From a virus (taxonomy: Duplodnaviria; Caudoviricetes), in IMG/VR virus record IMGVR_UViG_2681813556_000004, positions 1-64,000 of that record: a stretch of 64,000 nucleotides of DNA; one strand, 5' to 3'. The notes under the pieces are model-generated. The model did not search any database. It had not been told where the DNA came from and was given only the letters and a program-made list of their open reading frames with translations. Positions 6,814 through 11,325 of the stretch are shown here, one piece after another (position 1 is the first letter of the stretch; the number at the start of each line of letters is the position of its first letter). Both the position numbers and the translations under genes were made by a program.

Positions 6814-7023
6814 TCAGTCCGGCGTGAAGCTCTGCCGGGCCTCGAAGGCCTCGACATCACTCAGGCGATAGAACACCAGCCCGCCGAGCCTCACCCAGGC
6901 CGGGCCGTAGCGAGCCTCCCTCCAACGCTGCAGCGTGCGCGGTGCCAGGCGCCACCGCGCCGCAAGTTCGCGTGTCGTCAGCAGGGAGGGCTGTGGCGGA
7001 TGCGCGCCGGGATGAACCGTCAT
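6814..7023 (-). CDS. Excisionase/MerR-like HTH DNA-binding protein
   Basis: LLTTRELAARWRLAPRTLQRWR...GPAWVRLGGLVFYRLSDVEAFE; TGATG coupling with upstream ORF. Confidence 0.85.
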   Translation of the reverse strand: MTVHPGAHPPQPSLLTTRELAARWRLAPRTLQRWREARYGPAWVRLGGLVFYRLSDVEAFEARQSFTPD

Positions 7024-7298
7024 CAGGCCGCCCCCCGGCGATGAACCAGGGGCAAGGCCGCGGCACCGCCCTGGCAACCCTGCTCGCGGGCAAGGAAGTA
7101 CAGCGCCTCCAGCGCCGCGCGTTCGGCGGGCGTCAGCACCGCCCGGCGGTCGAGGGCAAAGGCCAGGTCATCGAGCGTCGCTGTTGCGACCTCCACCTCG
7201 CGCGGACCGAGGCGGCACGGGCCGAAGACGCTGATCATCCGCGGCAGTGCCGCGAGGGCGAGACTGGCCGCAAGCGGGGAATGGCGGCGATCAGACAT
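7023..7298 (-). CDS. Hypothetical protein
   Basis: 91 aa, overlaps both neighbours in an operon-like chain. Confidence 0.6.
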   Translation of the reverse strand: MSDRRHSPLAASLALAALPRMISVFGPCRLGPREVEVATATLDDLAFALDRRAVLTPAERAALEALYFLAREQGCQGGAAALPLVHRRGAA

Positions 7299-7533
7299 CG
7301 GCCACCGCCCAGGCCTGAGGCGGTCTCACGGCCGGATCAGGGGCCGGCATGCCGATCGCATCCTCGCCATCATCGGCATAGATCGCCAGCAGCGGCGTGC
7401 CGTCGGCGTGATGACCGGCATCCTCGATCCGGTAGCTGCGATTGGAGGCGCAGACTTCCGCCAGTTCCCAGCGGCGGTAGAAGCCCGGCAGGCGGCGGAA
7501 CTCGCCGGGCGTGGTGGCAATGATGCAGGTCAT
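7291..7533 (-). CDS. Hypothetical protein
   Basis: 80 aa, first gene after the putative sigma-dependent promoter; coupled to next gene. Confidence 0.6.
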   Translation of the reverse strand: MTCIIATTPGEFRRLPGFYRRWELAEVCASNRSYRIEDAGHHADGTPLLAIYADDGEDAIGMPAPDPAVRPPQAWAVADV

Positions 7534-7579
7534 CGATGTCTTCCCCTGTTCCGAGTGGGGCGCCGAGGGGCGCTCACAG

Positions 7580-7612
7580 GGGAAAAGCCAATCGCGCAGG
7601 CCGGATGGGACA
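7580..7612 (-). promoter_or_regulatory. Bipartite motif TGTCCCAT-N13-TTGGCTTTTCCC; putative promoter for the element-encoded sigma factor (copy 1)
   Basis: Both blocks and the spacer length are identical to the copy at 11062-11094; lies 46 nt upstream of ATG 7533. Confidence 0.65.
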
Positions 7613-7617
7613 TCGGC

Positions 7618-8340
7618 TCAGGGGATTTCCACGAAGGCGGCCCGAAGCCTGCGCATCGCGCGCTGGTAGCGTTTGCGGGCTGCCTCGTGGGTGAGACCGA
7701 ATTCGGCGGCCACCTCCGCCTGGCTGTATCCCTCGATCGCCACACGGATCACCAGCAGGGCATCGATGCCGAGCAGCTTCCGCAGTTCATCCTCCAGGGC
7801 TGCCGCCTCCGCAGCCTGCTGGCCTCCGGCCCGATCGGCGGGCAGGTCATCGGGAGCGGTGATGCTGGTGAGGAATGTGTGCTCTGCCCGCTTGCGATGT
7901 GCGCGGATCATGTCGCGTTCGACATTGAGCAGCACCGTGGCCGCGATCCAGGTGACGCGCCCGAGATCGAGTCCGCGGACCGCCTCGGTCGTACGCGACA
8001 TGATCTCCGAGGTGATCTCCTCGGCGGAGCCGATCCTGCGCCGGATCGATCGGTGCCGGATCGCGTCCAGTCCCGGCCAGAGCGCCAGCAGCATCACGGT
8101 CAGCGCGCAATCCGACACCGGACCATCGGACTGCGCCGCCTCGACGAGGGCTGTGAGGATCAGCTTCTTGTCGTCGGATGCGTCCCTTGTGCGATGCAGC
8201 CCGTCGAACAGCGCCACCGGATCGCGGAATGGGGCTAGCGCAGCATGCGCCTGCCGCAGGGCCTCAAAGCTGCGCTGGAACTGAAGCCTGGACGAGGATC
8301 GCATCAGATCCTCGCGGATCTCGTGCCAGGAAAAGGACAC
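7618..8340 (-). CDS. ECF-like sigma-70 family RNA polymerase sigma factor
   Basis: Region-2-like TWIAATVLLNVERDMIR; region-4 HTH GYSQAEVAAEFGLTHEAARKRYQRAMRRLR; GTG start. Confidence 0.75.
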   Translation of the reverse strand: MSFSWHEIREDLMRSSSRLQFQRSFEALRQAHAALAPFRDPVALFDGLHRTRDASDDKKLILTALVEAAQSDGPVSDCALTVMLLALWPGLDAIRHRSIRRRIGSAEEITSEIMSRTTEAVRGLDLGRVTWIAATVLLNVERDMIRAHRKRAEHTFLTSITAPDDLPADRAGGQQAAEAAALEDELRKLLGIDALLVIRVAIEGYSQAEVAAEFGLTHEAARKRYQRAMRRLRAAFVEIP

Positions 8341-8413
8341 CGGACGCCAGCCTTTCGGCCGGGCGTCCAGCGCCTCTCGGGGACCAGATCAGGGCGTCAT
8401 GCGCCTCTCGGGG
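8341..8413 (-). promoter_or_regulatory. Structured leader of the sigma gene: 22-nt direct repeat x2, 3-codon uORF (8400-8389), GAAA-tetraloop hairpin abutting GTG
   Basis: Repeats 8361-8382 and 8392-8413 (20/22 identical); ATG ACG CCC TGA after GAGAGG; stem GGACGCC-C-GGCC-GAAA-GGCT-GGCGTCC ends 1 nt before GTG. Confidence 0.6.
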
Positions 8414-8439
8414 TTGAAGGGGACGGGGGAAGGCGCGCT

Positions 8440-8688
8440 CTAGCGCGCCGGCCCGCTCGTATGATTCAGCGTGCCGCAGCCGCGGCACTTCGCCTGGACC
8501 GGAAAGCCCGTGAAATACTCGTGCCCCCGCGCGAAGCTCACGTGCATCCGGCCTTCACGGAACACGCCAAGCACGCCGCCGCAGCAGATGCAGCGCCAGG
8601 TCGAGGACGGGGTGGCGGGCGGGGTCTTCTGCGTCGCGCCCGACCGGCGCAACGATGCGGGCGGGCGAGAGGGGAAGGGAATCGGCAT
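8440..8688 (-). CDS. Mu Com-like zinc-finger protein
   Basis: WRCICCGGVLG...VQAKCRGCGTLN matches the Com-type CxxC...KCxxCgtxN pattern; AGGAG RBS before ATG 8688. Confidence 0.65.
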   Translation of the reverse strand: MPIPFPSRPPASLRRSGATQKTPPATPSSTWRCICCGGVLGVFREGRMHVSFARGHEYFTGFPVQAKCRGCGTLNHTSGPAR

Positions 8689-8780
8689 CGGAGTGCTCCT
8701 TGGTTTCAGGAGCAATCCAGATGGATCAGCGAATCGGAGATTGTCAGACCCCCCAATCGGAGCCGGATCGGAGCCAGCCG

Positions 8781-10988
8781 TTACACGGCGATCTCCCAGG
8801 GCCCTTTCTGGCCGAGACTTCTCAAAAAGTTACCCTTCAGCTTGTCCCAGAGCGGCTGCTTGAAGATGTTCGGCAGGGACTGGCCTTCGGCAATGCCTCT
8901 GACAAGATCACCCGTCGTCATCGGCGTCGGGCCATTGTTATGGGCATCCACCAGCCGCTGAATGATGGCGATACGGTTTGCACCCTTGATGTCGATGGTG
9001 GCTTTTCCAGGTACGAAGAGGGTGGCCATATTCTCCCCGGAACGGGTGAGCCCGACCGCTTGTCCGCCACGGGCCAATATCCGGTGACGCCGAAACACGG
9101 ACCGGAGCTTGTCTGCGACCAAGGCGATTTCGGACTGTCCCTTGTCGATCTGATCGGCAAGCGGCGTCAGGACGTTGGCTGCCAGACACGGCCCAGGTGC
9201 TTCGCCAGCCTGAAGGACCAGGCCGATGCCGAGGTTGTGGCGCGCCCGAAGCTGCGTATCGACGTCCGACCGGACCTTCTCCCGGTCGAGACCTCGCGCG
9301 AGATAGACCGGCACATTGCCGCCATCGACCGCGAGCGTTCCAAGATAGAGAAGCTGGTCAGTCAGCTTCTCTATGGCGGGCACATCCAGCGCCTGTTCAA
9401 GACGCGCCTTCAGATGTTGTGCGACCCAGCCGTCCCGCACTCGATAGACCCGGTAGCGATCCGGTGTGCCGCCAGGGGCCAGCTGTCCTTCGGTGACCTG
9501 AAGATCGGCCACCTTATGATTTCCTGCTTCCTCATCTCCCTTTTCCACCCGGACAACAACCTCGGCTGCAACCAGGCCTATCTCGTCTTCATCGTCGATC
9601 AGGTCGTCGCCTACCCAACCGGCAGGGACAAGAAATCCGATTTCCATCAGAAGGCTGGGATCGACGCCGCGTTTAACCAGCCACTCGCCGGTGACCCTGT
9701 CTGCCCCTATGTCCCAGATGGCCAGCAACGCAGGCATGACCGCCATGCTCTCCGCATCGCCTGGCGCGCGACCCTCACGGAGGATATTCCAGTGTCGAAG
9801 CAGGCGATGCCCCAGAACCCGTTCGAACGGGTCGTCAATACTGAGAAGGCTGCTCGTGTTACGATCGGTAAGCGTGAAGTCGAGGGTTTGCACATCGTCT
9901 CGCTCCGCGCGGCGATACCGCACCGCAATCTCGATGAAGCGGATCGCGACCGCCCGCTCGAAAATCCTCGGGAGGCCCGGCTGGCTGTGGATGAGTTCGG
10001 AGATGTCCTGATCGATAGTGGTGGAAAGCGAGAGGCGGTTGGCGAGATTGCCGATGCTGATGTCAGCGCGGATCACTTGCGCACGGGTGATCACCACATC
10101 GTCGAGTTCCGGCAGTTCCAGATCGAGGGCCTGCATGAACCGCGAGATGTCGTAGGCCTGAAAGTCGACGGGCTGGTTGGAATAGGTCTGATCGAGGGCC
10201 GTTTCGATGAATCGCTCGGCGATGGTGTGCCTGAACTTTCGGTTGCCAGCGCGGACATGTACCCGTCCGGTTGATGGCGTGTAGACGATCATCGCCTCTC
10301 CGGGTGGCCGGAAATAGATACTTGACCTATTGCCGTTGTCGTCGATCTCCCGGACGCTCGTGGGCGGATCGGGATGATACAGCAGGTACATCTCTGCCGC
10401 CGGTTCATCGCCGTCCTCGGGGATGTCGAACTTGTCGATGCTGTAGCCGTCGCCGCGATCGAGGCGCTTGTTGAGGTCGACAAGAAGCTCTTCGAGCAAT
10501 GCGCTGCCGGCGTCCGGGCCTCCGTCGACCGAAGGCTCCGCCATGAAGGTCTGGTAGTGCTTGTCATAGCGCCGGTAGAGCCGCAGGTGCAGGCTGTTCT
10601 CCGCCGCTTCGAACAGCCCGTGTTCGTTCGCAAAGGCCCACAGGCTGCGCGCCAGCCTGTCCCGCTGGTTCAGAAGCTCCCTGGCGCGGTCGGGTTCGAG
10701 CCTGGTTGTGGCGAGACCTTGGAGGACATACTCACCGCGGTCACTCGCAATTGTGACGATCCGGGCGGCTTCAGTTTCGAGCGGACCCAGCCGGTCCTTC
10801 TTTTCCTGCCGCAGCATGGTCCTGGCAAGCGACGGACCGTCCGGGTTGTCCACATCGAACTTGTAGGCAGAAAGCCAGTTCAACCTCTCGAAAGCTCTAG
10901 CCGCGAGAAATCCGGACAGCAGATTCGGCTCTGCATCATCGAATAGCCGGGAAAGACTGGGGCAGGTCTTCGTGGGCGCGCGAACCAT
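8781..10988 (-). CDS. 735-aa multidomain hypothetical protein, possible C-terminal winged HTH
   Basis: Long globular-looking ORF; GAGGT RBS before ATG 10988; no family motif recognised. Confidence 0.8.
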   Translation of the reverse strand: MVRAPTKTCPSLSRLFDDAEPNLLSGFLAARAFERLNWLSAYKFDVDNPDGPSLARTMLRQEKKDRLGPLETEAARIVTIASDRGEYVLQGLATTRLEPDRARELLNQRDRLARSLWAFANEHGLFEAAENSLHLRLYRRYDKHYQTFMAEPSVDGGPDAGSALLEELLVDLNKRLDRGDGYSIDKFDIPEDGDEPAAEMYLLYHPDPPTSVREIDDNGNRSSIYFRPPGEAMIVYTPSTGRVHVRAGNRKFRHTIAERFIETALDQTYSNQPVDFQAYDISRFMQALDLELPELDDVVITRAQVIRADISIGNLANRLSLSTTIDQDISELIHSQPGLPRIFERAVAIRFIEIAVRYRRAERDDVQTLDFTLTDRNTSSLLSIDDPFERVLGHRLLRHWNILREGRAPGDAESMAVMPALLAIWDIGADRVTGEWLVKRGVDPSLLMEIGFLVPAGWVGDDLIDDEDEIGLVAAEVVVRVEKGDEEAGNHKVADLQVTEGQLAPGGTPDRYRVYRVRDGWVAQHLKARLEQALDVPAIEKLTDQLLYLGTLAVDGGNVPVYLARGLDREKVRSDVDTQLRARHNLGIGLVLQAGEAPGPCLAANVLTPLADQIDKGQSEIALVADKLRSVFRRHRILARGGQAVGLTRSGENMATLFVPGKATIDIKGANRIAIIQRLVDAHNNGPTPMTTGDLVRGIAEGQSLPNIFKQPLWDKLKGNFLRSLGQKGPWEIAV

Positions 10989-11061
10989 GAGCCACCTCGC
11001 TGTCATTTCCGACGAGAGTAGGGACATCACCCGGTTTCGCCAGAGATTTTCTCCGGCCCCC

Positions 11062-11094
11062 TGTCCCATTGCCTCACCGGATTTGGCTTTTCCC
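11062..11094 (+). promoter_or_regulatory. Bipartite motif TGTCCCAT-N13-TTGGCTTTTCCC; putative sigma-dependent promoter (copy 2)
   Basis: Exact match of both blocks to 7580-7612; 27 nt upstream of ATG 11122 that heads the DUF2924/LSR operon. Confidence 0.65.
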
Positions 11095-11121
11095 TGGCAG
11101 ATGCTCCCCGGATGCCCTGCC

Positions 11122-11325
11122 ATGAAGCACCCCAATCCCCTGTCGCCCTTCCTGATGACCTCCGCCGAGCGGCGGGCCGAGTTGTGCCGCATCCTGGCCC
11201 TCGGGCTGGTCCGGTTGCGCATGAGGAAGTCAAGCGAACTCTCTGACGACATGGGAGAAACTTCGCTACACCTTCCGCCCGCAAAGAGCGTTGGTCGGCA
11301 TGCAAATCACCGGAGACCCGCATGA
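11122..11325 (+). CDS. Small hypothetical protein heading the recombinase operon
   Basis: MKHPNPLSPFLMTSAERRAELCRILALGLVRL; ATGA overlap with next gene. Confidence 0.65.
   Translation: MKHPNPLSPFLMTSAERRAELCRILALGLVRLRMRKSSELSDDMGETSLHLPPAKSVGRHANHRRPA

Follow-up and report, generated by a model that had tools for sequence, protein, structure and literature searches.

A conserved structured leader between a zinc-ribbon gene and a sigma factor gene in alphaproteobacterial integrative elements: a candidate Com/mom-like translational gate

To our knowledge, the Com/mom pair is the textbook, and nearly the sole studied, case in which a zinc-finger protein remodels an mRNA and so activates its translation. 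The system has been described from Mu-like phages, in which a DNA-modification gene is under its control. In BglG/SacY antitermination, a protein-stabilised RAT hairpin overlaps a terminator, and in the case of the IS10/IS50 transposase, translation from read-through transcripts is subject to fold-back inhibition. The RNA target of Com is a short hairpin, 4 bp in the stem and 6 nt in the loop, of which the first loop C and a GA are protected and critical; the motif is present more than once, and the site adjoins a second hairpin, whose stem contains the mom GUG (PMC6483171). The Mu sequence itself displays the Com hairpin directly 5′ of the mom-GUG hairpin.

Here we describe a locus that resembles Com/mom in layout and differs from it in target. 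It lies in a 64,000-nt stretch of DNA, hereafter the window, and coordinates and features refer to the minus strand of this window unless stated otherwise. An 82-aa zinc-ribbon gene (8440–8688; start ATG at 8688, stop TAG at 8440–8442), recognised as an open reading frame with a sub-threshold match to Pfam Zn_ribbon_Com and preceded by the Shine–Dalgarno (SD) sequence AAGGAG (8696–8701), is followed by a 99-nt spacer (8341–8439) and a 240-aa ECF-like sigma factor gene (7618–8340; GUG start at 8338–8340). As in Com/mom, a small four-Cys zinc-ribbon gene stands directly upstream of the putatively regulated gene in one operon: the leader contains no sigma-type or sigma-70-type promoter, and an operon scan for sigma-70 promoters and terminators found none conserved in the leader, so that the two genes probably share a transcript. 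They are 99 nt apart, whereas those of Mu overlap, and the gene under control would code not for a DNA-modification enzyme but for an ECF-like sigma factor belonging to an alphaproteobacterial integrative element. From sequence comparison and predicted folds, we tentatively read the spacer as a conserved structured mRNA leader that may form a Com/mom-like translational gate on a master sigma factor, operated by the zinc-ribbon protein; we place this reading at slightly less than an even chance.

The neighbourhood is that of an integrative element. Genes for an HTH_17 protein and a Prim-Pol protein lie downstream of the sigma gene on the same strand, and genes for a DUF2924 protein and a large serine recombinase on the opposite strand. 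We compared 172 related loci, of which 82 came from species genomes, 80 from metagenomes and 10 from the surroundings of divergent cluster representatives; their sigma proteins are between 77% and 34% identical to that of the window. In nearly all of them, down to the 34% level, a large ORF is followed by the zinc-ribbon gene, the spacer and the sigma gene, in this order, and the length of the spacer is kept as well. A regular-expression search finds a zinc-ribbon ORF upstream of the sigma gene in 148 of the 172 loci, with variants in addition; the loci without a match mostly lack upstream sequence, and the rest include two CxC knuckle variants, one truncated copy and one absence. The gap between the two genes is most often 99 nt (91 loci) and spans 89–116 nt overall. 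The element is carried by well over a hundred species of Rhodobacterales, Hyphomicrobiales and their relatives. A covariance model of the leader (R1) detects a single copy in the window's own genome, and in 150 other families of the class it returns one true and one false match, which is the single-copy, patchy distribution expected of a mobile element.

Several further features of these loci deserve mention. The ORF upstream of the zinc-ribbon gene in the window (823 aa, 8781–11252) belongs to no family in Pfam or NCBIfam, and its sole match is phrog_37634, of unknown function; a large ORF, of 700–820 aa among relatives, constantly occupies this place. Its listed start is probably too far upstream, since a promoter-like motif on the plus strand (11062–11093, described below) falls within it. 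In two loci, L069 and L102, the leader and the sigma gene are intact, and one of them lacks the zinc-ribbon gene while the other carries a truncated copy without the first knuckle; these natural knock-outs could be informative. The false match of R1 (L176:1555–1595) is a generic GC hairpin from another genome of the class, GNRA-capped and without a U tract, between a CBS-domain transporter-like gene and the convergent rpsD. Hairpins of this kind may be generic terminators in that genome that yield weak false matches to the leader model.

Kinship of the zinc-ribbon protein with Com is plausible. The protein has four Cys in two CxxC knuckles (C33/C36 and C68/C71), all four invariant, and a first knuckle of the RC-xx-C-x-KLL type that characterises Zn_ribbon_Com; W31 and R32 are nearly invariant and L40 and G41 fully so, giving the conserved core W-R-C-xx-C-x-K-L-L-G ... 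C-xx-C-x-x-L-N. The corresponding stretch of Mu Com (sequence from AF083977) reads IRC-KN-C-N-KLL. The knuckles are 16 residues apart in Mu Com and 31 in the window protein, which differs by a 31-residue insert between them and also by its disordered N-terminus, the disordered end of Mu Com being the C-terminal one. The initial annotation had placed a Com-type gene directly upstream of the sigma gene. The position is borne out by the comparison; the family assignment stays tentative, as the window protein itself scores 16.5 bits against Zn_ribbon_Com (PF10122; E = 0.0058, one knuckle only) and stays under the gathering cut-off of 22.9, and two positional orthologues exceed it (P0332, 26.2 bits; P0337, 26.9 bits), representing a subtype that holds the same position in loci such as L124. 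Among close members 16 of 18, and among diverse members 6 of 20, have Zn_ribbon_Com as their best Pfam family, always under the cut-off. A profile search with the zinc-ribbon family retrieved 73 relatives, P0332 and P0337 among them, three of which JGI names Com. The suggested profile-level link to Mu Com itself came out weak, with hhalign probabilities of only 19% and 26% over 14–20 columns and one knuckle. With an AlphaFold model (pLDDT 73.6), fold searches of BFVD and the PDB gave no match at E ≤ 0.001; the best BFVD hits, from E = 0.025, were unnamed zinc ribbons, and the PDB returned nothing. In PHROGs the zinc ribbon has no family and does not match the PHROG Com families, and a tblastn search of 50,697 phage records gave only noise (E ≥ 2).

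The sigma product scores above the cut-off for Pfam Sigma70_r4 and r4_2. It falls short of that for TIGR02937 (ECF sigma; 32.6 versus 42.9 bits), to which residues 100–234 align over profile positions 22–163 of 165. Of its 684 homologues nearly all are 240 aa long, and their starts coincide with the position of the window GUG, which is an ATG in 27 of the 34 leader clusters defined below. Because the start position never shifts and close homologues all share M1, S2 and W5, the GUG at 8338–8340 is the true sigma start, as the initial annotation had assumed. A downstream ATG at about 8304 was considered as the start and rejected, residues 1–12 being conserved from the GUG/AUG position onwards. 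The first 95 or so residues form a conserved N-terminal extension that begins M-S-F-x-W-H-E-I and matches no family. In the window MFE fold, a 9-bp hairpin (8292–8315; sigma codons 9–16) surrounds an in-frame AUG with GAGGA 5′ of it.

A bipartite promoter-like motif, TGTCCC followed after 14–20 nt by GGCTTTTCC, occurs twice in the window against none expected. One copy, a candidate target of the sigma factor, lies 6 nt past the sigma stop (7581–7612), and the other is the plus-strand copy at 11062–11093. The motif is found 9 nt past the sigma stop in 125 of 174 loci, the most divergent included, and many loci have a further copy about 1.5 kb downstream. The motif is likely the cognate promoter of this sigma family, and its conserved place after the sigma gene fits a sigma factor that switches on the downstream operons of the element. 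The leader would then be the likely control point of the whole element.

Within the leader, constraint acts on the nucleotides themselves. Leader positions −75 to −1 are 99% identical in the main group, compared with 79–85% at third-codon positions of the sigma gene. A 171-nt region folds with an MFE of −91 kcal/mol (z = −4.6), a value equalled by one of 200 shuffles. Rfam has no family match at E ≤ 1 on either strand of window positions 7000–9500. When the leaders were grouped into 34 sequence clusters (alignment A5), RNAalifold on its own arrived at two consensus helices, P1 within the first of two repeats and P2a next to the start codon. Cells of P1 and P2 can pair in 82% of cases, compared with 31–43% in controls with slid partners. 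Further upstream, sequence and MFE fold of the window indicate a 7-bp GC hairpin, P0 (8432–8449), whose loop holds the zinc-ribbon stop codon; at this site most lineages have a GC hairpin, even where the stop codon lies elsewhere.

P2a (8342–8368) is the strong, GAAA-capped inner hairpin already noticed in the window by the initial annotation, and the comparison extends it to the related leaders. In the window its 11 bp consist of 7 bp, a C bulge and 4 bp below the GAAA loop, and a single nucleotide separates it from the start codon; in every lineage it is very stable and ends 1–2 nt 5′ of the start. P2a is nearly invariant, yet compensatory pairs occur at alignment positions 65–85 (C-G in 31, U-A in 2 and U-G in 1 of the 34 clusters), 62–88 and 71–80. 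Its loop is a GNRA tetraloop in 102 of 111 unique leaders, with all four nucleotides used at N, a strand-specific signature of structure in the sense RNA.

Below P2a, the hairpin can be extended across the start codon. In the window MFE, the 3′ arm of this basal extension, P2b (8330–8341), comprises the start codon and codons 2–4 and pairs with 8369–8378. The same arrangement recurs in most lineages, where GGCGC of the second repeat pairs with the start codon and a purine tract pairs with codons 2–3. Pair 54–97 of P2b can form in 32 of 34 clusters and does so with three pair types, and through P2b the start codon is at least partly paired in the MFE of 33 of 34. P2b is weaker and less regular than P2a and is absent from the RNAalifold consensus. 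An outer stem nested over the start codon had been foreseen, with the first repeat as its partner; in the minimum-energy fold of the window the start codon is paired, with the second repeat as its partner, the stem with the first being possible and not favoured. Of the foreseen pairings, the hairpin beside the start codon is conserved among homologous leaders, with compensatory changes.

The two repeats turn out to be copies of one small hairpin. A 13-mer occurs exactly twice (8401–8413 and 8370–8382), the similarity extends to 20 of 22 nt with a period of 31 nt, and the degenerate motif GRCGCNNGACGYCC is found at just these two sites in 64 kb, against 0.14 expected. Repeat 1 (8391–8413), which includes the first 13-mer, forms the P1 hairpin at 8393–8405, with stem GGCG/CGCC and loop CAUGA. 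Repeat 2 (8362–8382) contains the purine tract GAGAGG (8373–8378) and a second copy of the motif, with stem 8371–8374/8362–8365 and loop CUGGA, which overlaps the 5′ arm of P2a. The common form is a 4-bp stem GRCG/CGYC closed by a C-N-N-G-A loop in which NN is free. Copy 1 has this loop in 117 of 117 unique leaders and copy 2 in 111 of 112, and the copies are spaced 31 nt apart in 106 of 112. The duplication itself is older; its sharpening to an exact 13-nt identity, as seen in the window, is specific to that lineage. The second pair of P1 (positions 23–33) is G-C in 18, A-U in 15 and unpaired in 1 of the 34 clusters; it switched between G-C and A-U at least 5–6 times on the sigma tree, no one-sided intermediates were seen, and the window carries a G-C form nested inside an A-U clade.

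Copy 2 can fold on itself in 99% of cells. Its 3′ half doubles as the 5′ arm of P2a, so that only one of the two, the small hairpin or P2a, can form at a time. The repeats are conserved and, as had been supposed, offer an alternative fold, namely the copy 2 hairpin versus P2a. Relative to P2a, the small-hairpin state costs +18.5 kcal/mol in the window (mean +6.6, range −11 to +20). Another alternative, a long helix P3 close to the one drawn in the initial annotation, joins repeat 1 to the same 3′ arm, which is possible because both copies are alike, and is the MFE in 8 clusters. P3 is pairable in 87.6% of cases, no better than in shuffles, and breaks precisely where the 3′ arm has co-varied with repeat 2 (L093 and L106); P2 is therefore the selected helix and P3 a side effect of the repeat. 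The motif recurs a third time, in degenerate form (GGCG, 5 nt with GA or GG at the end, UGUC), across the start codon (8333–8348); in AUG lineages the final loop A of this instance is the A of the AUG.

Set against the Com site, this leader has much in common. A hairpin with a 4-bp stem, a loop with C first and GA last, lies directly 5′ of or overlaps an inhibitory hairpin associated with the GUG or AUG start (here, copy 2 overlaps P2a), and the motif is present in more than one copy. The loop has 5 nt compared with 6, its closing pair is inverted (G-C versus C-G), GAC replaces the GAG of the Com SELEX motif, and the inhibitory hairpin is much stronger. As with the IS10/IS50 transposase, the start codon of a mobile-element regulator would be sequestered by upstream RNA; the present leader differs in that it has no detected internal promoter that would yield a shorter, open transcript.

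We envision that the zinc-ribbon protein, as a distant Com relative, would bind the small hairpins via the invariant loop C and GA, the positions critical for Mu Com. Such binding, probably to the nascent RNA, would hold the 5′ arm away from P2 and thereby free the ribosome-binding region. The sigma factor would then be made and may turn on the replication and recombinase operons of the element from the conserved promoter-like motifs. Several observations speak against this gate: the Com cut-off missed by the window protein, the low hhalign probabilities, the unspecific fold searches, the knuckle spacing, the stability of P2a, the differences from the SELEX motif and the place of P2b outside the consensus. 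Equilibrium melting of the window P2a by a small protein is unlikely, and the cost of the small-hairpin state in the window means that kinetic, co-transcriptional trapping has to be assumed. Moreover, very divergent zinc ribbons (28–40% identity) stand beside unchanged hairpins, so that co-variation between protein and RNA is not visible.

The geometry of P2a relative to the start codon also suits a split ribosome-binding site, in which P2a would be a constitutive positive element that loops out 27 nt and the 5′ purine tract would serve as the SD at an effective 5 nt from the start, as in T4 genes 38 and 25. In T4, hairpins bring the spacing from 22 nt to 5 nt and from 27 nt to 11 nt (PMC3014915). 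The purine tract (GAGAGG here, GGAGG in many relatives) reads RRGG in 33 of 34 clusters and is a full GGAGG in 10, with anti-SD duplexes of −8 kcal/mol or stronger; it is always 4 nt from P2a, which with the 1–2 nt from P2a to the start gives a folded spacing of 5–6 nt. The complete candidate arrangement (RRGG, 4 nt, P2a, 1–2 nt, start codon) is present in 33 of 34 clusters, within the T4 gene 38-type range of 5–11 nt. The window GUG has a weak SD-like sequence within 18 nt, whose best anti-SD duplex (−5.9 kcal/mol) about equals that of the upstream tract. The tract of the main group, on the other hand, is weak (AAGG, −4.7 kcal/mol), and a better SD-like sequence, AAGGCAGG, lies within the loop and 3′ arm of P2a (−7.4 kcal/mol). 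The GG of the tract is required by the small hairpin stem as well, and repeat 1, the invariant loop C and GA and the obligatory zinc-ribbon gene are left unexplained. The hairpin is longer and more stable than those of T4, its base can extend over both the SD-like tract and the start codon, and it comes with a repeated hairpin motif and a dedicated zinc-ribbon gene. We consider a split site on its own unlikely but a serious alternative, and one that could coexist with the gate, closed P2b being the off state and open P2b with folded P2a the on state. If true, the leaders would be the first large family of split sites beyond the T-even phages.

The overlap of a putative protein-site hairpin with the 5′ arm of a strong GC hairpin can equally be read as transcription attenuation, with P2a as a U-tract-poor terminator and the mutually exclusive small hairpin as a protein-stabilised antiterminator of the BglG/SacY kind. 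The similar GNRA-capped GC hairpin without a U tract between convergent genes in L176 is compatible with such a role. However, no U tract is conserved after P2a; a T-rich tail is confined to the lineage of the window, its place in relatives being taken by TCCTTCGCG. P2a abuts the start codon, no PRD/CAT-type protein is present as in BglG/SacY, and the strict 1–2 nt to the start codon together with the start-codon pairing point to translation. Attenuation therefore appears improbable to us.

ECF sigma genes are often accompanied by small zinc-binding partners, and the zinc ribbon might likewise have another role, for instance as an anti-sigma or RNA-polymerase-binding factor, the hairpins then being elements of mRNA processing or stability (cleavage sites for RNase III or RNase E, for instance, or a 5′ hairpin that protects the transcript). 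Two members do match the anti-sigma factor Fin in Pfam (E = 0.064). These matches are at noise level, the partner gene is upstream of the sigma gene and not downstream, and the twin loop motif goes unexplained, so that we give this explanation little weight.

At the DNA level, the two copies could be operators, 13-bp palindromes 31 bp or three helical turns apart that bind a dimeric regulator of a sigma promoter. Each copy does read as an inverted repeat, the two keep a fixed phase of 31 bp, and the switching between G-C and A-U would also suit a symmetric DNA site. The conserved spacer positions C and GA are asymmetric, however, which argues for recognition of RNA and not of a symmetric DNA site; four of four one-sided changes give G-U, which is tolerated only in RNA; the GNRA loops and the many G-U pairs of P2 are strand-specific; and the leader has no promoter-like site. 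Operators are thus very improbable. Least credible is the switch proposed in the initial annotation, in which translation of a 3-codon uORF (8389–8400, in the loop and 3′ arm of P1; in the window GAGAGG, 3 nt, AUG ACG CCC UGA) melts repeat 1, re-pairs the leader and unmasks the start codon, since comparison largely refutes it: among 117 unique leaders, AUG fills the loop position in 4 and one of AUG, GUG and UUG in 16, less than the 19% that chance would give for NNG, and the nearest relative (L003) has AAG there, so that the uORF is incidental and no conserved part of the leader.

Returning to the Com/mom-like gate, we consider it possible, with a still lower degree of confidence, that two C-N-N-G-A hairpins and a GNRA-capped, start-proximal hairpin, read by a diverged Com-type zinc ribbon, make up an undescribed class of riboregulator that serves through sigma translation as the master on-switch of widespread alphaproteobacterial integrative, possibly satellite-like, elements. 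A search of the literature on this type of element (DUF2924 with serine recombinase; phage satellites in Alphaproteobacteria) found no account of the zinc-ribbon/leader/sigma module. If this reading is true, Com-type activation would leave the Mu-like phages and be coupled to a transcription cascade. The gate itself, if it holds, would provide another system in which to study Com-type RNA recognition, far from the first in evolution and sampled very well, where the invariant C and GA of the loop and the compensatory variants found in nature serve as ready-made mutants. It would likewise add a new RNA motif, absent from Rfam, and account for the silencing of the elements' master regulator. Finally, two contigs that bear the module, L030 and L076, have been assigned to a 'Candidatus Woesearchaeota archaeon' MAG and to a 'Rhodocyclaceae' MAG, which probably reflects mis-binning of a mobile element, or transfer.
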